64,000 nt of DNA, from the NCBI GenBank assembly GCA_963727625.1, contig CAVSHR010000006.1, forward strand, positions 1-64,000, in the 5' to 3' direction. A program made the translations under genes and the position numbers. This DNA comes from an uncultured delta proteobacterium. GTDB taxonomy: Bacteria > Desulfobacterota > Binatia > UBA9968. Shown piece by piece: positions 1 through 10,676 of this stretch (positions are counted from its first letter, which is position 1; each line of letters begins with the position of its first letter). Below the pieces are notes generated by a model. It made no database searches. It saw only the letters and a program-made list of their open reading frames with translations, and was not told the DNA's origin.

Positions 1-33
1 CTAGATAACGGCGATGGATGTATGCGTTGCTCG

Positions 34-723
34 ATGCCAAGACGAGCGCGCATTGCTCCCGGTGAAATAATTTACCACGCTCTCAACCGCGCCAACGGGC
101 GCGGCCAACTTTTTGACAAGCCCGAAGATTACGCCGCGTTCGAGCGGATCATGGTTGCAGCGATGCGCCGTTCTCCGATCCGGCTGCTGGCTTATTGTTT
201 GATGCCCAATCACTGGCACATGGTTTTGTGGCCGAAGAAGGACGGCGAGATGACCGAGTTTCTTCGCTGGCTCACGCTCACTCACAGCCAACGTCTACAC
301 GCTCACCGCCACACCACCGGCTACGGGCATATTTATCAAGGGCGGTTCAAAAGTTTTCCCGTCGAGCAGGATCAAGCCGCGCTCAATGTGATTCGCTATG
401 TGGAACGCAACGCCTTGCGAGCCAACCTCGTCGACAAAGCGCAGGACTGGCGCTGGTGCAGTCTATGGCGAAAAGTTCATGGGGATCGAGAATCGTTGCT
501 GAGCGAGTGGTCCTTCGATAGGCCGGCAAACTGGGTTGAATGGGTGAACACGGCACAAACAGAAGGTGAAATCGAAGCGCTGCGGAGGTGCGTGAACCGC
601 GGCACACCCTACGGCACGGAAACTTGGAAGACAAAGATCGCGGCTACGCTCGGATTGAAATATACACTTCAGCCACGCGGTCGTCCTAGAAAGGCGGTGG
701 AATTAGCAAATACGCAAACGTAA
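34..723 (+). mobile_element. REP-associated tyrosine transposase (RAYT, Y1_Tnp/HUH family)
   Basis: MPRRAR N-terminus, YHALNRAN, YCLMPNHWH (HUH), YQGRFKS, YVERN (catalytic Tyr), WRWCS, C-terminal PRGRPRK. Confidence 0.92.
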
Positions 724-748
724 ATAAGGTTCGCGTCCCCTTTTCTCA
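716..748. repeat. 33-bp direct repeat copy 1 (RAYT 3' end motif)
   Basis: AAACGTAAATAAGGTTCGCGTCCCCTTTTCTCA, identical to 1251-1283. Confidence 0.95.
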
Positions 749-754
749 CCCCCT

Positions 755-1005: not shown

Positions 1006-1250
1006 GTAATGACGCATAGCCGGGTCAACACATCCGGCTTACGACACAGCTCCGCTGATGACCGTGGACCGAGTTTGTCAACTGAGTCAGCTACGTGCCC
1101 GTCGAGCCCGGTCTCATTATTACGCGCTGAGTTTTTTGGCCGAGGAAACGTTATCGCGAGCACCGATTGCGGCAGAATGTCAAGATACAAGACACGACCG
1201 CACGACCGCGCCCCAAAATCCGGGTTTTTTAAGACCATCTGCGCCAGGAG

Positions 1251-1283
1251 AAACGTAAATAAGGTTCGCGTCCCCTTTTCTCA
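1251..1283. repeat. 33-bp direct repeat copy 2
   Basis: identical to 716-748. Confidence 0.95.
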
Positions 1284-1454
1284 TCCCCGCGGTCCGACCC
1301 CAGTAGGGCGGCTTCGATTCGAATGGCGGTGTTTTCGTGGGTATTGGGATAGTGTACAGTACGATACGTTACTGAGCTTGGGACGACTGGGGTTGTCCCA
1401 GTTCGTGAAATTCAAAAATGTTGAGAATTTAATAGAATGCCAACAGAAAGATCG

Positions 1455-1744: not shown

Positions 1745-1841
1745 GGGGTCGGGCATAACAATCACTACAATCTTCGCAGAAATAATGACGGGGTCGTGCT
1801 TGAGTATTGATTTATGTTGGACGGCACCGTGACACCATCCG

Positions 1842-2129
1842 CTAACCCTTGCGGGATAGCAGCGTTCGCAAGGTCTCGTAAACATCGCGTCGGTGGCCGA
1901 CGTGATAGACTTCCAGACAGGACTCTTCGTCATTGACCCGGTAGATGATGCGATAACGCCTGACGCGGTAGGAACGGTAACCGTCGAGTTCACCGGTGAG
2001 TTCCGTACCCATCTCATGCTTTGTTAGCAACGTATCGATCGTCGATCGGACCAGCCGTTTTATTTCAGGCGGCAGCTTGGCAATAAGCCGGGAGCATTCG
2101 GGGGTATAACGAGCAAACAGTTTGCTCAA
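1842..2129 (-). CDS. relE: RelE/ParE family toxin
   Basis: LTGELDGYRSYRVRRYRIIYRV...VGHRRDVYE; TTG start overlaps the antitoxin stop (TTGA). Confidence 0.88.
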   Translation of the reverse strand: MSKLFARYTPECSRLIAKLPPEIKRLVRSTIDTLLTKHEMGTELTGELDGYRSYRVRRYRIIYRVNDEESCLEVYHVGHRRDVYETLRTLLSRKG

Positions 2130-2395
2130 CGCCGATATACCTCGTCCGGACGCAACCACTTGCCCTTGCGGCCTTGACGGATGGAAGTTCTTAGACACTT
2201 GACTGTGTCCTCGTCGCTGAGAATCTCGAGCGTTTCGAGCAAACCGGCGTATTTCTCCATGCTGAGGATCACCGCGGCGGGGACGCCGTTTTTGGTGACG
2301 GCGACCGACTCGTCGGCGCTTTCAATTTGACGGATCAGATCCAATAGATCGTTTTTTGCTTTTGTGATCGGGACGTATTTTGATATCTCGTTCAT
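2126..2395 (-). CDS. Phd/YefM family antitoxin
   Basis: VPITKAKNDLLDLI...VTKNGVPAAVILS...LLETLEILSD; GAGG RBS upstream. Confidence 0.9.
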   Translation of the reverse strand: MNEISKYVPITKAKNDLLDLIRQIESADESVAVTKNGVPAAVILSMEKYAGLLETLEILSDEDTVKCLRTSIRQGRKGKWLRPDEVYRR

Positions 2396-2410
2396 AATGA
2401 CCTCAATAAC

Positions 2411-2442
2411 GGCCAGTATAATAGCCACTGGCCGGCTGTCAA
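2411..2442 (-). promoter_or_regulatory. sigma70 promoter of the TA operon with overlapping operator palindrome
   Basis: TTGACA-N16-TATACT on the minus strand; inverted repeat GGCCAGT-N9-ACTGGCC (2411-2433) overlaps the -10 box. Confidence 0.7.
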
Positions 2443-2767
2443 GATCGCGCGGACTCTCCATTACTTTGAGCGGTTAGGTCAACCAATAACATTTCTACTC
2501 GATTGTGCTTTGCCGCGCAGATAGCATTCATCGAACCTTGGTTTGTCCGATGTCAAAAATTGTCGTGGCGCAGACGAATATCCAGATCCAGGGAAGCAAA
2601 GGGGCAAGTCTAGAGTTAGCTAATACTCGCCACAGTCTTTTCGACCCGATCCCGGAGTTGTCTGTTCCTGCGGCGACATGCGCGGCGATCCTGGGTTGCT
2701 GGCGATTGGGACCGGAGAGTTCGAGTTCGACAACTTCGCAATCGCCAATGTGGAGTAGCCCTTGCGA

Positions 2768-4396
2768 TTAGGTGGCCGCGCCGCGGATGCGGTCGATCGC
2801 CGCCATGGGTTCGTCGGGACAGGCATTGCCGCGCCAGGCCACATGGCCGTCGGGGCGCACCAGCACCAGGCGAGCGCCGTAAAGTTCGGCAACCGCGGGA
2901 TCGGTGATCGCGATCTCGGTCATTGGAACGTTTCGTCGTTTGGCTGCCCGGATCCATCCTTGGGCGTCCGGCGGCGCGGCGCCGAGCCTGAGCAGGGTAA
3001 AGCCCGTGCCGAACAGGTCGAGGATGGACGTGCCATCTTCGAGCCAGGCATGGGGTGCGCGCGCTCCCGGCCGGGCCGACGGGGTAAAGGAGAATTTTTC
3101 AAAGGGGGGTGGCGGCGTGCCGTCGGCGATGCAGATGGGCGAATCTTCGTAGGCGTATTGGAATTTCTGATAGTCGCTCCCTGAGAACTCGGTGAAGATG
3201 GCCCGCAGGGCCTGAACGGAGGGGTCTTTCTCTCCGGCCGCCGCGCGTTCCGCCGCCTGCGCCGTGATGGCCGGCACGCCGGTGATTGCCCGGAAAGCTT
3301 CGGTGCCCAGCGTCACGTTGCGCCGGGCGATGGGTTGGCGCTCCGACTCATAGGATTCGAGAAGCTCGTCCCCGCCCCATCCCTCGATCATGGCAGCAAG
3401 CTTCCAGGCCAGGTTCCCGGCCTCTTCGACGCCGGTATGCATGCCGTAGCCGCCCGTGGGAGAACATTGATGGGCCGCGTCACCGGCGATGAAGGCCCGG
3501 CCGACGCGGTAGCGCTCGGCGACGAAGTCGCGCCTTTCCCAATGTGTGACGTCGATAATTTCATGGGGAAAATCGCCGCCGAAAAGGCGACGGAGATAAA
3601 CTTCGGCGTCGGCGTCGCGGGAGGGCTCATCGAAGACCGTGAGGCGGTAAAGCTCTTTTCCGTCGATGGCGATCATCTCGGACCAGCAGCCGGTCTCGTC
3701 GATGGAGCGGTGAAAGCGCGCCCGTCCCTTGTCGTGGAGCGTGATCATCTCGGGCGAGCGGAAAAAGATGTTGATGGAATGGGCGAAAACCCCGAGGCCG
3801 CCGAGTTCGATGCCGAGCGCCTTTCTGACCACGCCGCCGGGACCGTCGCAGCCGACGAGGTAGCGCGCCGTGATCTCCTCCCTCGCGCCGGTCTCGCCGT
3901 CGCGCAGCACCGCCTTCACGATGTCTTCGTCCTGGGTGAGGCCTTCCAAGGCGATATTGTAGCGCAGATCGACCGAAGCCAGCGTTTTAACGTGAGCAGC
4001 GAGGATCGGATCGAAAAAAATTTGCGGGCAATGGCACGGGCTTTCCGGCGTAAACGGTTGGCGGTCACGCGACGCATAGGATGGGATTTTGAGGCGCGCC
4101 AGTTCCGGCCCAAGGAAACTCCGCTGGTAGACGATGTCACCGGGATAATCTTCCGGCCAACCGGCCTTGCGCACGGTATCGGCGATCCCCCAGCGGCGGC
4201 AGAATTCCATGTTGCGCGCGCTGACTTGGCTCATTTTCGGCACGGGCACCGTCCCGTCGCGTTTTTCCACAACGATGCAGCCGACACCTAACCGGCCCAA
4301 CTCGGCCGCCAGGGCAAGGCCCACGGGCCCGGCGCCGACGACCAGGACGGGGATGTCAGTGCTATCTTCTCTGTTGACCGCGTGTCTACGCGCCAT
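2768..4396 (-). CDS. FAD-dependent monooxygenase (PheA/TfdB-like, FAD_binding_3)
   Basis: GAGPVG, LVGCDG, AGDAAH, PTGGYGMHTG, NLAWKL, PGARAPH, LVRPDGHVAWR. Confidence 0.92.
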   Translation of the reverse strand: MARRHAVNREDSTDIPVLVVGAGPVGLALAAELGRLGVGCIVVEKRDGTVPVPKMSQVSARNMEFCRRWGIADTVRKAGWPEDYPGDIVYQRSFLGPELARLKIPSYASRDRQPFTPESPCHCPQIFFDPILAAHVKTLASVDLRYNIALEGLTQDEDIVKAVLRDGETGAREEITARYLVGCDGPGGVVRKALGIELGGLGVFAHSINIFFRSPEMITLHDKGRARFHRSIDETGCWSEMIAIDGKELYRLTVFDEPSRDADAEVYLRRLFGGDFPHEIIDVTHWERRDFVAERYRVGRAFIAGDAAHQCSPTGGYGMHTGVEEAGNLAWKLAAMIEGWGGDELLESYESERQPIARRNVTLGTEAFRAITGVPAITAQAAERAAAGEKDPSVQALRAIFTEFSGSDYQKFQYAYEDSPICIADGTPPPPFEKFSFTPSARPGARAPHAWLEDGTSILDLFGTGFTLLRLGAAPPDAQGWIRAAKRRNVPMTEIAITDPAVAELYGARLVLVRPDGHVAWRGNACPDEPMAAIDRIRGAAT

Positions 4397-4730
4397 TCTG
4401 CTTCCTCGCATCGTTTTCAGTGTAAAAATGGAGCCCGATCAGCAATTGACTCTGAGCCATCTTCCATTTCGCTAGAGTTACTTGAGAACCGTGCGCCGCT
4501 TCAATCCGAATCAGGCTGTGCTTTTTCGCAGCTTATCTTGTTTCAGATCCTGCCTACAATTCCAAGGGCAATCCATAGCAGGAAGCAGGAGACCGGATTG
4601 GGGTCAAGCATGAGTTATCGACTTATTCTATCGCGATGACAAACCACTCCATGAGAGGTTGGATCTCGCCTACAAACCCGGAACATAAATATCTTCCTTT
4701 TCGGATTAGCGTCGATAAGCTGCTGTCGTG

Positions 4731-5153
4731 TTATAAGAATGCACGCTGCAAGGAGCTCACGAATTGGATGTGCGGAACGGATTTCGCGCTTAGCCGTTCA
4801 TCGTTTGTGATAAACAGATCGACGCGCGCGTGCGCTGCACAGGCGAGCTGAATCGCGTCGGGTGGTCGGATGGTGCGATCCTTTCGAATGCTGGCGTAGA
4901 GACGGGCCGGCTCGACATCGAAAGGAATAATCACCGCGCCCCGCAGCAACACAGATTCATAACGACGGGCCAAACTCTCGTTCCCCTCTTCCATCGGCTT
5001 GATCAGGATTTCTCCCAAGGTAAGAGCAGAAGTGTAGAGCTCGTCACCGCGTTCGAGCATACGTCTGCGCAAAGCGGTGACGCGCTCCGATAAGTCACGA
5101 AAGTCCTCGATCAAGTAAATGAAGAGATTGGTGTCCCAGAAAATTCGGCTCAC
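4731..5153 (-). CDS. vapC: PIN-domain VapC toxin
   Basis: IFWDTNLFIY, TLGEIL, DAIQLACA, FITND; GTG start overlaps the upstream stop (GTGA). Confidence 0.9.
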   Translation of the reverse strand: MSRIFWDTNLFIYLIEDFRDLSERVTALRRRMLERGDELYTSALTLGEILIKPMEEGNESLARRYESVLLRGAVIIPFDVEPARLYASIRKDRTIRPPDAIQLACAAHARVDLFITNDERLSAKSVPHIQFVSSLQRAFL

Positions 5154-5659
5154 TCCCATCCTCCGCGAATGCGGCTGACGTAGTCATCGGGCTTTTCATT
5201 CACCCAAATTTCTTTCCCCAATCCACGCAGGCCTAAAATCGGATCACTTTCTTTGGATCCTTTTCTTTTGCCGATGAATTGCTCCTTATACCAAACGAGC
5301 AACGGGTGATACTTGGCTGGAATATCTTCCTTGTCGGGCAGTACTTTGCCACGGCGACGTTTCGGATCGAAGTCGTCGGTTTCCCGAAAGAGCCGGCGGG
5401 TGCTTTTACCGGTCGCGTAGAGCATCCGATGCGAGCCGGGGTTCGGCGCCCGGTTCGCAACGCAATGAAGGTATGCATGTACTTGAACGCCCGCTCTTAA
5501 CTCCGCGGATATATGTTCCCGTCGTGCCCGGTCTACTATTTCAACGACGCTGAAATCCTCGCGTTTTGGATTTTCCTTGTGCAGGAGAGCGGTCGCGATC
5601 CAAACTTCGTCTGCGACTTTGATCGCGTTTATGGGTTCCTTTTTCATTAGGTTTACCAT
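5150..5659 (-). CDS. putative large antitoxin partner of VapC
   Basis: translationally coupled to vapC; C-terminal LRGLGKEIW...DDYVSRIRGGWE resembles VapB-like tails. Confidence 0.7.
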   Translation of the reverse strand: MVNLMKKEPINAIKVADEVWIATALLHKENPKREDFSVVEIVDRARREHISAELRAGVQVHAYLHCVANRAPNPGSHRMLYATGKSTRRLFRETDDFDPKRRRGKVLPDKEDIPAKYHPLLVWYKEQFIGKRKGSKESDPILGLRGLGKEIWVNEKPDDYVSRIRGGWE

Positions 5660-5666
5660 GTAATCA

Positions 5667-5695
5667 CATATAAATTAGGTAAGCCTTGCTGTCAA
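5667..5695 (-). promoter_or_regulatory. putative sigma70 promoter
   Basis: TTGACA-N17-TATATG just upstream of the 5659 start. Confidence 0.5.
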
Positions 5696-5747
5696 GATCA
5701 CGAGGGATCGCCACACGCCTTCGCGGCCCTTCAGTTCAGAGAGGGGG

Positions 5748-5818
5748 GTGTCTGATTTGCCTAACTCTACTAATTAACTCAAGTTCGCTGATTGGCGGGG
5801 AGTCCGCCCGCCGGTGCA
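5748..5818. repeat. ~70-bp dispersed repeat with small hairpin, copy 1
   Basis: about 80% identical to 8965-9031; conserved GGCGG-N5-CCGCC stem. Confidence 0.8.
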
Positions 5819-5866
5819 ATTGTTTAGATATCCAGGCCTGGCCCAAAGAGTACTGCCGTGGGCCGA

Positions 5867-6052
5867 TCAATCTGCCGACGGGTTTTTGAACTCACGTAAC
5901 AGCGGTGCGAGTTCAACTGTCTTCAGCGCGCCGACAGCGGCTTCCCAACGTCCCTCGGCGCAGAGGCACTGCATGCCCGCATCCTCGTAGGCTTGAAGGG
6001 CGGCTTCAAGGCATGCGTCTCGAGTGCGTTTGGCGAGAACTTCCGGTTCCAT
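5867..6052 (-). CDS. small conserved hypothetical protein
   Basis: ACLEAALQAYEDAG..LCAEGRWEAAV motif; plausible RBS. Confidence 0.65.
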   Translation of the reverse strand: MEPEVLAKRTRDACLEAALQAYEDAGMQCLCAEGRWEAAVGALKTVELAPLLREFKNPSAD

Positions 6053-6137
6053 ATGGCTTCCACCGACGAATGTCTAGAGTCTATCGTTAATTCGCAAGCT
6101 GGAACAATGCGGCAAGGTAACTTGGAACTGCGCAAGT

Positions 6138-7496
6138 CTACTCTGAGATGACGCGCACCGGCGCGGCTTCGGGCTCGGGCGGCGGCTTGGCGCGAAAATC
6201 GATGGGCAGAGGTTGTTCGCCTAGCATGTTGGCAAGGAGCACTTCGCGGACGCTTTCCAAGTCCAACCCTGCAGCGGCCGCATGCGGGGCGACTTCCGCC
6301 AAAACGCGGTCAATGTCCTGCATCATTTTCCACTGCTTGAAGAGATCGGGTTTCTCGACGCCCATCGCCTCGCCGACCAGCTCGAGAAAATTGACGACTT
6401 TGAAGGGTGACGTGGCTTCGTGGGCGCACAGCTCGCGATGGCAGGCGTGATAGATGCCGACGAGATAATCGACTCCGGCCGCAGCGGCGGCCTCTAGCTC
6501 GCGGGCGTGCAGCTCGCGTTTGTACGCCGGCACGGGAGCGAGCGAGTTGCACATGTAGCCGACGCGCGGCTGTTCGAGATCGACCAGCTCCAAACCTGGA
6601 ATCGCCGCGAGAATTTTAATCGCGCCTTCGGTCACGCCGGCCACGCCGGGATGCTCGTGCAGGGCGATCCGCTTGTTGATCGGATGGATGAAGTGAGGGC
6701 GAAGCAGCTCGATGCGCTCGGCGATGTAGGGCACGACGTGCTGCAGATCGAAGGTTGCGTCGGTGCTCGGCATGACGATCTCGCCCAGCTGGATGTTGCA
6801 GGTCGGACACCAGGTGAGCACGCGCGGCGCGCCCGTGCCGGCGAATCCGGCCACTGTGCCGCCGCCGATTCGCCCCGAGGTTTTGGTGTCGCCGGCGCGG
6901 TACTGAATCACGCCGCAGCAATACGCGGGGCCGGCAAAAACTCTGTAGCGCGCGCCGAGGCGGTCCAGGACTTCGAGGCAGAGCAGCGCGATATGCGGCG
7001 TCTTGAGGACGTTGCAACCGAGATACATCACGATGTCCGGCGCCGGATCCGACCCGGCGGCGGCCGGTTGAGTGAAACCGGCGAGGAGATCGGCGGGAAG
7101 CTGCAGACGCGACAGCACCTTCACCGCGCTGGACATTTTTTTGAAGCCGGCTTGGCCGGCGGCGCGCCGTTCGCCCGCCTGGCGCCGCTCGTTGAGCCTC
7201 AGACGGGTCGCCGCCAACATGAAACGCGGATTAACGCCGTCGTCGCAGGCCGTGAGACACCGACCGGAGCCGGTGCACGCGTTGGCCCAGCGGGCGCCGC
7301 GGCTTGATGGATCGCCGCCGCCGCGCAAAATATCCAGCACATCGCCGACGATCGCCGACGGCTCGGTGGTATCGATCCCCGCCGGCGCCGCCGTGGGACA
7401 AACCTCGACGCACTTCGCGCAGCGGGTGCAGCGGTCAAGAATATCGCGCACGCGCAGGTCGATCGTCGCGATGAATGCATCGGCGTGATCGGTCAT
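6138..7496 (-). CDS. Fe-S oxidoreductase with 4Fe-4S dicluster and CCG domains (GlcF/HdrD-like)
   Basis: CTRCAKCVEVCP, YLGC, YCCG, WCPTC, YHAC. Confidence 0.88.
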   Translation of the reverse strand: MTDHADAFIATIDLRVRDILDRCTRCAKCVEVCPTAAPAGIDTTEPSAIVGDVLDILRGGGDPSSRGARWANACTGSGRCLTACDDGVNPRFMLAATRLRLNERRQAGERRAAGQAGFKKMSSAVKVLSRLQLPADLLAGFTQPAAAGSDPAPDIVMYLGCNVLKTPHIALLCLEVLDRLGARYRVFAGPAYCCGVIQYRAGDTKTSGRIGGGTVAGFAGTGAPRVLTWCPTCNIQLGEIVMPSTDATFDLQHVVPYIAERIELLRPHFIHPINKRIALHEHPGVAGVTEGAIKILAAIPGLELVDLEQPRVGYMCNSLAPVPAYKRELHARELEAAAAAGVDYLVGIYHACHRELCAHEATSPFKVVNFLELVGEAMGVEKPDLFKQWKMMQDIDRVLAEVAPHAAAAGLDLESVREVLLANMLGEQPLPIDFRAKPPPEPEAAPVRVISE

Positions 7497-7585
7497 GGCT
7501 TCTCCCTTTGCAAAGCGCGGAACCTCCTGCTACCGGCAGTCTGCCTTCATGTAAAGCTGATTGTCAATTACCGTAGGTTGTGTGG

Positions 7586-7667
7586 GATCGTTATCCGTGA
7601 AAGCGCGCACGAAACCATTTTCGAATTCGTCGAGCGTCTTCGCAGTCCGCACGTTGGCGATGCCGCA
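7586..7667 (-). pseudogene. internal fragment of a comE allele
   Basis: 72/82 nt identical to 10899-10980. Confidence 0.9.
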
Positions 7668-7739
7668 CAAGTCCCTTACGATAGCTAAACACTTTCAGCG
7701 AGAGTTATTGGGTGAGACGCAGGGGTCGAGCACTCCGAT

Positions 7740-8075
7740 TCATGGTAGGACAACCGAAACCTGACCATGGGGCCTGCGGGTCGGGCGGACGGTAATCTCC
7801 ACGTCCTGCCCAAGCGCGACTAGAAAGTCCATCAGCCTTTCAACCGAAAAGTTGCCGGACCGATTGCGCATCAGCGCCGAGACATGGGGCTGCTTGATGC
7901 CGAGCAAAGCGCCCGCCTGAGTCTGGGTGAGATCGCGGTCTTTGATGATGCGGTAGATCTGCAGCGTAAGATGAGCCTTGAGTTGCTCGCGTTCCGGATT
8001 AGCGAAACCGATATCGGCGAATACATTGCCGCTGCTCTTTTCGAAAGTCATTCGGTTTTTTTTCCTTACCGCCAT
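7740..8075 (-). CDS. XRE-family HTH antitoxin (HigA-like), orphan
   Basis: SSGNVFADIG, LTQTQAGALLGIKQPHVSALM, FSVERLM; no toxin gene upstream. Confidence 0.88.
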   Translation of the reverse strand: MAVRKKNRMTFEKSSGNVFADIGFANPEREQLKAHLTLQIYRIIKDRDLTQTQAGALLGIKQPHVSALMRNRSGNFSVERLMDFLVALGQDVEITVRPTRRPHGQVSVVLP

Positions 8076-8101
8076 GATCAATGGCTCCTTTGCCGGTCAG
8101 T

Positions 8102-8309
8102 GCGCTCGCGCGCGACAGCGTCGAGGTGAGGATTTTTATGTTTTCGCTTTTCTCGATGTAGCGCACGAACAAATATTTGTTTTCCTGCGAATCCAACGGC
8201 GCCGCGGGCACTCACGCCCTTCGTGTCGGCAGCGGCACGCGGTCGATGTGCTCGATCTCGGTGAGCAGCAGCCGCTCGGTCAGGGCCGCGCGGATCTTGG
8301 TGTGTGCCG
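8102..8309 (-). repeat. chimeric duplicate of the comE 3' tail and the sulfatase 3' tail
   Basis: 8102-8211 matches 10748-10857 (106/110); 8203-8309 matches 9069-9175 (1 mismatch). Confidence 0.95.
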
Positions 8310-8505
8310 CGGCTCGGGAGTCAGGTCTCTTGATTCTTGGATTTGCTGTTGCCAGCTTAAATCGTCATTGGGGTCTGGATATCTAATCAATTGTGGCCCT
8401 CGTGCGCGACGGTTTTACCGTCTGGATTGTCCGCATCACTCGGAAAATCCTCAAGTTGGCGAGATCACCCGGCCTTGGTATACTCAGCGCGTAACGGAGG
8501 GAACA

Positions 8506-8721
8506 ATGAAACTAACTGCGGTCATTGAGCGGGAGGGAGACGGTTATGTCTCGCTGTGCCCCGAGCTGGACGTGGCGAGTCAAGGTAAAACCGTCGAGGA
8601 AGCGCGCGACAATTTACGCGAAGCGTTGGAGCTCTTCTTGGAGTCGGCTTCAGCCGATGAAATCAAGCAGCGGCTGCGGAGCGAGGTGTTCGTGACCCAG
8701 ATTGAGGTCGCAGTTGGCTAG
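8506..8721 (+). CDS. hicB: HicB family antitoxin
   Basis: MKLTAVIEREGDGYVSLCPELDVASQGKTVEEARDNLREALEL; GGAGG RBS. Confidence 0.9.
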   Translation: MKLTAVIEREGDGYVSLCPELDVASQGKTVEEARDNLREALELFLESASADEIKQRLRSEVFVTQIEVAVG

Positions 8722-8935
8722 ACTGCGTATTCTTTCCGGGAAGGAAGTCTGCGCTATCCTAAGAAAGTCCGGCTTTGAGGAAATCCGTAGGCGAGGCAGC
8801 CATGTGATCATGCAGAAAAAAATTGCGACGGGAACGATTACTGTTCCAGTACCTGATCACGGTGAGATTCGCATTGGCACGCTGCAATCGATCATCCGCC
8901 AGTCCGGGGTGTCGAGAAGCGAATTCAAAGAGTAA
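8714..8935 (+). CDS. hicA: HicA family toxin
   Basis: LSGKEVCAIL..GF...RRGSH...VPVPDH.EI..GTLQSIIRQSG. Confidence 0.9.
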   Translation: MARLRILSGKEVCAILRKSGFEEIRRRGSHVIMQKKIATGTITVPVPDHGEIRIGTLQSIIRQSGVSRSEFKE

Positions 8936-8964
8936 TTTCGAATGACTTGATAGCCTCCCCTCCA

Positions 8965-9031
8965 GTGTCCGACTTGCCTAAATCTACTAACTCAAATTCG
9001 CTGTTGGCGGGGGAGCCGCCGGCCTGTAGCA
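8965..9031. repeat. ~70-bp dispersed repeat, copy 2
   Basis: similar to 5748-5818. Confidence 0.8.
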
Positions 9032-9077
9032 CGCAAACAGATATTTGTTTTCCTGCGAGTCCAACGGGCGCGGGCAC

Positions 9078-10676
9078 TCACGCCCTTCGTGTCGGCAGCG
9101 GCACGCGGTCGATGTGCTCGATCTCGGTGAGCAGCAGCCGCTCGGTCAGGGCCGCGCGGATCTTGGCGTGTGCCGGATCGTCCCAGAGATTATCGAACTC
9201 GCCCGGATCGTTCTCAAGATCGTAGAGCTCGCCCCAGCCGGTGCCATGGAAGACCGACAGGCGGTAGCGGCCGTCGATCAAGCTGTGCACCCGCGGCGGT
9301 ATGGCGGTGCCCGGGCTCGAGCTCTGGTGGTCGTACTGGATGAACACCGAGTCGCGCACCGCTGTGCCGCGCTCGATCGCCGGCAGCAGATTTCTACCCT
9401 GCATGCCGCTCGCGGGCTCGACCCTCGCCCGCTCCAGGATCGTCGCGCGAATGTCCATGGTGGAAGCCAGCGCGTCGCTGCGCGCCTGTGCCGGCGGCGT
9501 CTGTGGATCGGCCCAGATGAAGGGCACGCGCACTATGCTCTGGTACTGCTCGGCGCCTTTGAGCATCAGGCGGTGATCGCCGAGATGATCGCCATGGTCG
9601 CTGGTGAAGAGGACCACGGTGTCGTCGCACCGGCCGCTCTTGTCGAGCGCCGCCAGCACGGAGCCGATGGCGTCGTCGATGCATGAGATCATGCCGCAGG
9701 TCAGCGCCCGGGCCTCCTGCGCCTCGCGCGCGGTGACGCCGATGCTGTTCATGCCGTCGAGGTTGGCCTTGCCGGTGTCGCGATCCCTCCAGATGTTGCG
9801 AATGAGCGTTGGCGGCGTCCAGTCCCGGCGGGAAAACGCCTCCGGCGCCGGGAACTGCTCGGGCTCGTACATGTCCCAATACTTACCCGGCGGATTGAAC
9901 GGGTGGTGCGGATCGGGGAACGAAACCATCAAGAAGAACGGCGCATCGGCGTCGGCCTGGTCGAGATAAGCGCAGGCGCGCTCGCCGAGGAAGGCCGTGG
10001 CGTAAAGTTCCGCCGGGATCGCCGTGCGATAAGCCTGCGGGCAGATGTAATCGTGCGGCAATGAGTTTTTCGGCCCAAGCAGACTCCGCGCCTTGGCATC
10101 GCGCTGATCGAGCCAGCGGTCGTAGTCGCCGCCCGGCCTGTCGCCATGCGCGCGCACCAGCGTCACCTGCTCGAAGCCATAGAACGGAGTGCGCACATGG
10201 GCGTCCGGCCCGTTCCAATATTCCGGCGTCTCCTGCTCGTACTGCGGCTCGGCGAGATCGTGGCGCAGCGCCTGCGCCAGCGCCTTGGACGGCTCATGGA
10301 ACCCGTCGCGCGGCGGCGGACGCTTGATGGTCGGAGGGTTCGCTGTGAAATTCTGCAGATGGCTCTTGCCGATCAGGGCGGTGCGGTAACCGGCGTCCCG
10401 CAGCAGATCGACGAAGGTCACCGCGTTCATGGTCAGCGGAATGCCGTTTGAGCGCACACCGTGCACCGAGGGCATGCGCGCGGTCATCAGGCTGGCGCGG
10501 TTGGGCATGCAGACCGGGCTGGCGACGTAAAAGCGCTCGAAGACAGTTCCGCGCGCCGCGATGGAATCGATGTGCGGGGTGCGCAGCACCGGGTGGCCGT
10601 AGCAGCCCAGAAAGTCCGCGCGCTGCTGATCGGTGATGAAAAGCAGGAAATTGGGTCGGGAGGAGGTTTTTGCCAT
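9078..10676 (-). CDS. sulfatase-like hydrolase (formylglycine-dependent)
   Basis: PNFLLFITDQQR, CMPNRAS (CxPxR), GKSH, PDPHHPF, FTSDHG. Confidence 0.93.
   Translation of the reverse strand: MAKTSSRPNFLLFITDQQRADFLGCYGHPVLRTPHIDSIAARGTVFERFYVASPVCMPNRASLMTARMPSVHGVRSNGIPLTMNAVTFVDLLRDAGYRTALIGKSHLQNFTANPPTIKRPPPRDGFHEPSKALAQALRHDLAEPQYEQETPEYWNGPDAHVRTPFYGFEQVTLVRAHGDRPGGDYDRWLDQRDAKARSLLGPKNSLPHDYICPQAYRTAIPAELYATAFLGERACAYLDQADADAPFFLMVSFPDPHHPFNPPGKYWDMYEPEQFPAPEAFSRRDWTPPTLIRNIWRDRDTGKANLDGMNSIGVTAREAQEARALTCGMISCIDDAIGSVLAALDKSGRCDDTVVLFTSDHGDHLGDHRLMLKGAEQYQSIVRVPFIWADPQTPPAQARSDALASTMDIRATILERARVEPASGMQGRNLLPAIERGTAVRDSVFIQYDHQSSSPGTAIPPRVHSLIDGRYRLSVFHGTGWGELYDLENDPGEFDNLWDDPAHAKIRAALTERLLLTEIEHIDRVPLPTRRA

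Follow-up and report, generated by a model that had tools for sequence, protein, structure and literature searches.

Lone ends of TIRYT transposases as likely one-ended handles on neighbouring DNA, with one toxin–antitoxin lineage attached

Two toxin–antitoxin (TA) modules built from different genes lie near the beginning of a 64,000-nucleotide stretch of DNA from an uncultured delta proteobacterium (the window, which opens contig C6 of G000, a genome of 6.6 Mb in 15 contigs), and their flanks resemble one another. This raises the question of what the shared flanks are and whether they move the modules. Both modules are in the same orientation, with all of their genes on the minus strand. One pairs a Phd/YefM antitoxin (2126..2398; PF02604, TIGR01552) with a RelE/ParE toxin (1842..2198; PF05016, TIGR02385), these last coordinates being those of the longest open reading frame (ORF), whose true start is likely further in. 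The other pairs a VapC (PIN) toxin (4731..5159; PF01850) with a partner gene of 169 amino acids (aa) at 5150..5659. A preliminary description of this DNA read the flanks as the two conserved ends of non-autonomous elements with exchangeable TA cargo, moved by an adjacent REP-associated tyrosine transposase (RAYT). The motifs downstream of the two toxins are terminal inverted repeats (TIRs) of TIRYT transposases, which form RAYT subclass 2.1, and they stand alone, away from the rest of an element. Such lone ends likely serve as handles by which DNA on one side is rearranged, and a single TA lineage, phd-relE, is stably attached to one of them.

The downstream pair of motifs exists as described, the sites at 1790 and 4600 aligning at 21 of 27 columns with one gap. 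The first of these (1790..1816, plus strand), termed alpha, is directed into the 3′ end of relE, is co-inherited with phd-relE, and is assigned by mismatch counts to a subfamily of TIRYTs of approximately 314 aa. It matches the ends of such enzymes on contigs C4, C7 and C8, with 3 mismatches in 25 positions to the left-end TIR at C4:223278 (TIRYT gene at C4:223328) and 4 to the ends of two TIRYTs on C8. Seven other sites in the genome lie within 4 mismatches in 25 of the 1790 motif, compared with none in a locally shuffled genome. A degenerate alpha pattern recovers 78 sites in 18 of the 31 genus genomes compared (G000 and 30 others), whilst the reversed pattern, searched across the same genomes as a control, recovers none. 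When 73 alpha copies were mapped, 14 were found to bracket a RAYT and 59 to stand alone. The second site (4600..4627, plus strand), 131 nt from the vapC stop codon, is an alpha variant one base longer; a variant pattern search gave 10 hits in 7 of the 31 genomes and no control hits, and a RAYT lies beside none of the 10, the assignment of 4600 as a TIR being by similarity only. Many intact ends fit a GGGGWSAS core, to which 4600 conforms at seven of eight positions and 1790 at six. No stable hairpin was found at the TIRs (folding z-scores from -1.6 to +1.1 over six stretches), nor was GTAG read in the sequence of their tips. An alpha-type enzyme (L057:141-1070) has a weak match to the DnaA C-terminus (TIGR00362, E 4e-6, residues 204-290).

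The genome contains about 30 RAYT genes and fragments in total. Intact RAYTs are mostly tightly bracketed by inverted ends starting GGGGTC, GGTGTC or GGGGAC, each protein subfamily has its own end sequence, and complete TIRYT elements (TIRtrons) occur as copies of 95.6-99.9% identity at separate loci, mostly from TIR to TIR. A general position weight matrix built on the ends of 30 RAYTs discriminated weakly between real and shuffled sequence at scores under 16, and mismatch counts to individual ends were used instead; around 35 TA loci the matrix gave no clear pattern.

The intact RAYT near the modules was also correctly noted. It lies at 22..723 on the plus strand (233 aa; PF01797, E 2.7e-13), has H64, H66 and Y126, the HUH and tyrosine residues, invariant in a six-sequence alignment, and is without the C-terminal DnaA-like helix-turn-helix (HTH). 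Its left end is cut by the contig start, and positions 1-753 are 99.9% identical to C6:141813-142565. The motif at its right end reads on the minus strand as stated, but comparison of ends places this right TIR (716..753, minus strand) in a subfamily other than that of 1790 and 4600. On end sequence the adjacent RAYT is rejected as the cognate enzyme, 1790 fitting the ~314-aa TIRYTs instead.

One downstream TIR does travel with a TA module, namely phd-relE. The relatives G002 (91%) and G019 (84%) have phd-relE with the same TIR, and their neighbouring genes differ from those in the window. Homologues of phd were collected from metagenomes (80, of which 77 had upstream sequence and 70 enough downstream sequence), and in 10 of the 70 the relE stop codon is followed, at a distance of 52-59 nt, by an alpha TIR, four of the ten representing one locus; all ten belong to the group of at least 86% identity. 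Eleven TIR-bearing copies were then compared, comprising seven metagenome loci (the shared locus counted once), one weaker match, G002, G019 and the window. Outside the tip, 54 of their 55 pairs share at most 16 nt, and beyond the -35 box sharing ranges from 1 to at least 600 nt. A break at 1785 is also seen in a contig from sequencing run X5. When the window is compared with five diverged copies, TIR identity is 83-88% (20-21 of 24 positions), whereas the spacer reaches 33-45% and four-fold degenerate sites 48-63%, a contrast drawn only from copies that retained a TIR. A facing TIR on the promoter side was found for neither window module, and a facing TIR-like site is present there in 3 of 77 phd-relE homologues.

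Other cargo is found in copies anchored at a TIR tip. On contig C2, an exact 415-bp tandem duplication, whose unit starts 13 nt outside the TIR core, leaves its gene truncated; in G003, half of a brnA gene is carried on a 220-bp unit at a distance of 7.4 kb from the full copy; and four further copy pairs extend over 107, 262, 272 and at least 698 bp. The copied units begin at or just outside the tip and end at arbitrary points, in a comparison of 18 pairs picked by eye, several of them for other questions. Exact repeats of at least 8 nt, or stutters, occur at the outer tip of 57 of 192 TIRs; the inner side has them in 4 of 192, and random sites in 2.3% of cases. For 42 of the 57, the start of the second copy falls 5-14 nt beyond the outer edge of the core. 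One fixed and one variable end on the copied DNA are common to the tip-anchored units and the phd-relE pairs, and the duplications and stutters point to a TIRYT nicking just outside one TIR, the far end being variable. A separate type of junction is seen where the 3′ end of a brnA antitoxin gene is fused to the inner edge of alpha TIRs and of beta TIRs, the latter from another TIRYT subfamily (L080:2022 and 9472, L090, L109). The fusion lies at a common word of 6-8 nt, like the transposase stop codon in complete elements, and the inner edge of the TIR may be a second joining point.

The reading that we consider reasonably probable is that a TIRYT encoded elsewhere in the genome nicks outside a lone TIR and moves or copies the neighbouring DNA in a one-ended manner. 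Supplied in trans, the enzyme would nick some 5-14 bases outside the TIR, short or long displacement synthesis would follow, the nicked end would be joined to new DNA, and the TIR with a variable length of inner DNA would be duplicated or relocated as a unit with a single defined end. The 5′-phosphotyrosine end could be joined to whichever 3′-OH was at hand: that of the nascent strand would give a tandem duplication or stutter and that of a distant site a relocation, such that stutters, tandem duplications and one-ended insertions would form a single product series. HUH chemistry permits such a series, as these enzymes leave a 5′-phosphotyrosine and a free 3′-OH able to prime synthesis or resolve the link, according to passages of PMC8266576. 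TA operons would persist as cargo by virtue of being short, carrying their own promoter and resisting loss, and that promoter would set the minimum far end at the -35 box. We infer the nick, its position, the joining step and the TIRYT as cutter from the apparent products. The wider proposition that TIRYTs constitute an active one-ended gene-capture system, in which any single TIR of ~25 bp remaining in the chromosome may serve as a handle and some TA lineages may retain that handle by selection as their way of travelling, is put forward tentatively.

What, then, is the motif shared on the promoter side? The pair exists, the sites at 2435 and 5688 matching at 16 of 18 positions, or at 21 of 26 when extended. 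The 2435 motif is the -35 box of a sigma-70-type promoter of phd-relE (2415..2442, minus strand; TTGACA-16-TATACT, 11 of 12 positions), and by our own count the -35 core keeps its position in 72 of 77 homologues, irrespective of whether a TIR is present. The other site (5688..5713, minus strand) is likely the -35 region of the vapC operon: TGTCAA is present there in three of three genus homologues, all without the 4600 TIR, and the site was not called by a promoter scan. The two sites are mutual best 25-mer matches in the genome (5 mismatches; 1 and 0 such hits in the shuffled genome), and their match beyond the hexamers is better than chance for two -35 boxes. A repeat family was ruled out by pattern counts and 9-mer frequency, the extended pattern having 5 hits in the 31 genomes compared with 2 control hits, three of the five being the two window sites and the G002 orthologue, and the 9-mer core being seen 38 times with 41.9 expected. 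The odds that the motif is a decayed left TIR are low, its spacing being 2-3 nt short and its outer part mismatched, and what the two modules share upstream is likely no more than promoter sequence. Of the supposed element ends, therefore, the downstream motifs stand as RAYT-family ends and the promoter-side motif does not, being a -35 box that is kept regardless of a TIR and whose extension forms no family.

Neither is the cargo specific to TA genes. Outside the window, 51 TA loci from nine Pfam families were tested; 2 lie within 500 nt and 3 within 1 kb of a lone TIR (p = 0.12), such that the enrichment expected from the preliminary description is not apparent at this range, and for 10 of them the nearest lone TIR is no more than 3 kb away (p = 5e-4). 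This association is one of regional clustering, not standard architecture. Most lone TIRs adjoin non-TA genes, their neighbours being mainly metabolic or transport genes (substrate-binding proteins, enzymes), which does not support an exchangeable cargo restricted to TA modules. Homologues of the vapC module have a TIR-like site downstream in 1 of 31 scorable loci, which overlap the genus hits and are not independent of them. One-ended movement fits the phd-relE module well, whilst the vapC module has more likely come to lie beside its TIR only recently.

A number of observations weigh against one-ended movement. In two pairs of phd-relE copies, sharing on the promoter side extends over at least 600 nt although the tips differ, which an in-place rearrangement of the flank fits equally, and one pair shares a weak, gapped match of 259 nt outside the tip. 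Members of the phd-relE family that have no TIR also switch neighbours, so the module moves without one, and TIRs facing away from the toxin are as common in the family (9 of 70). The gene next to a lone alpha TIR belongs to a TA pair in 12 of 56 cases on the inward side and in 6 of 54 on the outward side, which is no significant difference (p = 0.20); this is a hand tally over genes called with our own heuristic, for which Pfam was run on 68 of 93 inward candidates, with 2 added, and on 34 of 104 outward ones, namely the small ones. The cut-site junctions, judged by eye, have no common dinucleotide. A precise empty site was not found, there being no syntenic relative among the 30 other genus genomes, since the monooxygenase gene between the two modules has no close orthologue in them and the neighbours of the Fe-S gene beyond the vapC module differ in six relatives. 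An explanation that dispenses with transport is that lone TIRs are relics of decayed TIRtrons, which still trigger deletions or insertions at their tips, the TA modules arriving by other means in the same plastic regions and no inner DNA being carried. Relic ends with transposase stubs do occur (2599-2665 and others), TA loci lie near TIRs at 3 kb and not at 1 kb, and TA genes are found on both sides of TIRs; moreover, in G002/L171 and G019/L192 the inner flank is kept and only the outer flank has changed, a pattern for which a deletion next to the tip is as good an account as transport. However, deletion alone does not produce the exact 415-bp duplication, the second 220-bp copy 7.4 kb away or the one-sided stutters, and the TIR outlasts neutral sites within the phd-relE unit; we regard this explanation as unlikely, whilst giving it real weight.

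Same-facing TIRs could also be the recombination sites of an integron-like array, from which cargo and one TIR are excised as a circle. From 1745 to 8964, a single orientation is common to eight TIRs or TIR-like sites, and several relatives have same-facing TIR pairs 1.4-7 kb apart. Nevertheless, neighbouring TIRs show no significant orientation bias (in G000, 6 pairs have the same and 6 the opposite orientation; in relatives, 21 of 34 pairs agree, p = 0.23), adjacent TIRs derive from different subfamilies, and copied units end within genes rather than at a second TIR, making such an array improbable. The two-ended cassette of the preliminary description draws some support from the promoter-side sites, which match at 14 of 19 positions beyond the hexamer (p ~3e-5 before allowing for post-hoc choice), and a badly decayed left end is conceivable in that another TIR subfamily has ATCTTGACA within its left end. 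Against this stand the findings on the promoter-side motif, beyond whose -35 box sharing is variable, the different ends of the adjacent RAYT, and the rarity of facing TIR pairs (1 of 12 in G000, 4 of 34 in relatives). The two-ended model is largely refuted, and we consider it highly improbable.

Besides alpha and the ends of the adjacent RAYT, the first 9 kb of the window contain ends of at least three further TIRYT subfamilies, at 1200, 2600, 5747 and 8964. A second copy of the right end of the adjacent RAYT, with its last codons, TIR and a short outer flank, lies at 1251..1291 (minus strand; 39 of 41 positions identical to 716-756), and the outer flank of the RAYT itself is adjoined by the 253-nt end of a multi-copy element (753-1006) with seven other copies of 87-94% identity, those on C9 and C13 also lying in or beside TIRtrons. 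A lone left-end TIR of a third subfamily, with an internal TTGACA, is located at 1177..1200 (minus strand; 39 pattern hits in 15 of 31 genomes, control 0), and TIRs of this type bracket RAYT starts in relatives. Stacked just outside 1790 is a TIR-like repeat (1745..1772, plus strand), which has related sites at C4:601139, in G006 and in G003; no RAYT was seen beside it, which makes it a putative TIR. The tip of this repeat is reached by an ORF that begins at 1437 and is probably cut off there (1437-1744). It had no Pfam or NCBIfam match, and its product presumably corresponds to the front of a DEDD-type exonuclease. Upstream of phd, a relic right TIR with the last codons of a fourth subfamily lies at 2599..2665 (plus strand; 84% over 68 nt to C5:1076262-1076329). 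The lone beta TIR at 5747..5773 (plus strand) has a second copy at 8964, and a search with its pattern yields 61 sites across 16 of the 31 genomes and none in the control; beta TIRs bracket an intact RAYT in G007:C182. Facing 5747 is a TIR-like repeat at 5817..5845 (minus strand), with a related copy at 8370 (20 of 22 positions complementary to 8372-8393) and no RAYT seen beside it. A still denser arrangement occurs in L082 (G044:C19:1-14000), where some 15 TIR-like sites of several subfamilies occupy 14 kb. Several complete TIRtrons of G000 (C4:223278, C8:235700-245100 and C5:1071000-1077300) appear to lie within what looks like Rhs/YD-repeat DNA, one of them directly after an apparent core-ending DPDG motif. 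Across the genome, short GTTCAA-based tandem arrays are among the most over-represented 12-mers that are not GC-rich.

The gene between the two modules encodes an FAD-dependent monooxygenase (2768..4411, minus strand; PF01494, PF21274). A single contig of run X5, from a different organism, joins 2466 to 2779, a hint that the adjacency of phd-relE and the monooxygenase occurs elsewhere. The 169-aa partner of VapC is likely an antitoxin, a VapC-like ORF following it in 30 of 35 homologous loci. It belongs to no Pfam or NCBIfam family, its closest named homologues (69-82% identity) are mostly from Candidatus Binatia, and in the Atlas it falls into hypothetical-protein clusters only, with DUF7669 on 12% of one cluster. 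Beyond the vapC module, 5858-7582 holds an Fe-S/CCG gene with different neighbours in each of the six relatives; in G006, the whole block (91%) has two same-facing TIRs and a further TA pair at its flanks. From 7586 to 9175, a HicB-HicA pair and three TIR-like sites are enclosed by 153-nt direct repeats (8157-8309 and 9025-9175; 94%) assembled from pieces of the neighbouring TPP-enzyme and sulfatase genes, and a further TPP gene piece (7586-7667) lies beside an orphan HigA-like HTH gene.

TIRtrons, TIRYT genes and free TIR families were described by Di Nocera et al. in 2013 (PMC3733652). In that paper and in Quentin et al. 2018 (PMC6006769), where they form subclass 2.1, the same RAYT-like genes are flanked by TIRs of GGGGWSAS consensus, with a C-terminal DnaA-like HTH in part of them and free genomic TIR copies. 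Unlike the TIRtrons described there, complete elements here occur as near-identical copies and single TIRs stand at the fixed end of copied DNA. Passages of PMC6006769 place subclass 2.1 in 14.9% of strains. Laurenceau et al. (bioRxiv 10.1101/2020.03.09.984088) reported that tnpA-REP of the same subclass faces procA genes in picocyanobacteria and proposed mobilisation, a post-submission note adding that there is no strong evidence for or against causation. In that system, full genes and C-terminal fragments face the 3′ ends of a small cargo at a conserved distance, without inverted repeats and with one cargo family, whereas here the TIR itself is conserved and the cargo varied. One-ended transposition of the IS91 family of insertion sequences (ISs), as presented in parts of PMC13181058, likewise involves an HUH enzyme, a fixed end, a variable far end and co-mobilised adjacent DNA. 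It differs in its distinct oriIS and terIS, the lack of terminal inverted repeats and a specific tetranucleotide target, where we find inverted-repeat ends, an IS200-like Y1 enzyme and a cut apparently set by distance from the TIR. By this analogy, the mechanism would work like IS91 one-ended transposition, but the element is not an IS91. The RAYT/TnpA-REP enzymes acting on REP and REPIN sequences, in passages of PMC8266576 and PMC5581495, share the superfamily and cleavage near a short repeat in trans; in contrast to these, the TIRs have no stable hairpin or GTAG, the enzyme genes are multi-copy and the junctions lack a C|T site. RAYT group 1 is reported by Bertels et al. (PMC5581495) to have 6.3% duplicates and to resemble ISs, and the two-ended mobilisation of integrons by miniature inverted-repeat transposable elements is covered in a section of PMC3184786. 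A literature search without supplements or most subscription papers found no account that connects single TIRYT ends with the capture of cargo or with stutters at the tip; no link between a REP-associated tyrosine transposase and one-ended transposition was found, and no demonstrated substrate or role for RAYT subclass 2.1 in the literature surveyed.

For this subclass, the breakpoints described here name a substrate, the TIR, and predict both a cut 5-14 nt outside it and the products: stutters, tandem duplications and one-ended insertions. They also suggest a route by which a TA module could change its chromosomal position without a recombinase of its own. If the gene-capture proposition is true, the large RAYT subclass 2.1 would possess a Helitron/IS91-like activity, and there would be one answer to the question of how TA modules in chromosomes relocate. 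Single TIRs would then be the means by which TA operons, transporters and enzymes are copied and shuffled, and TIRYTs would not be domesticated bystanders.

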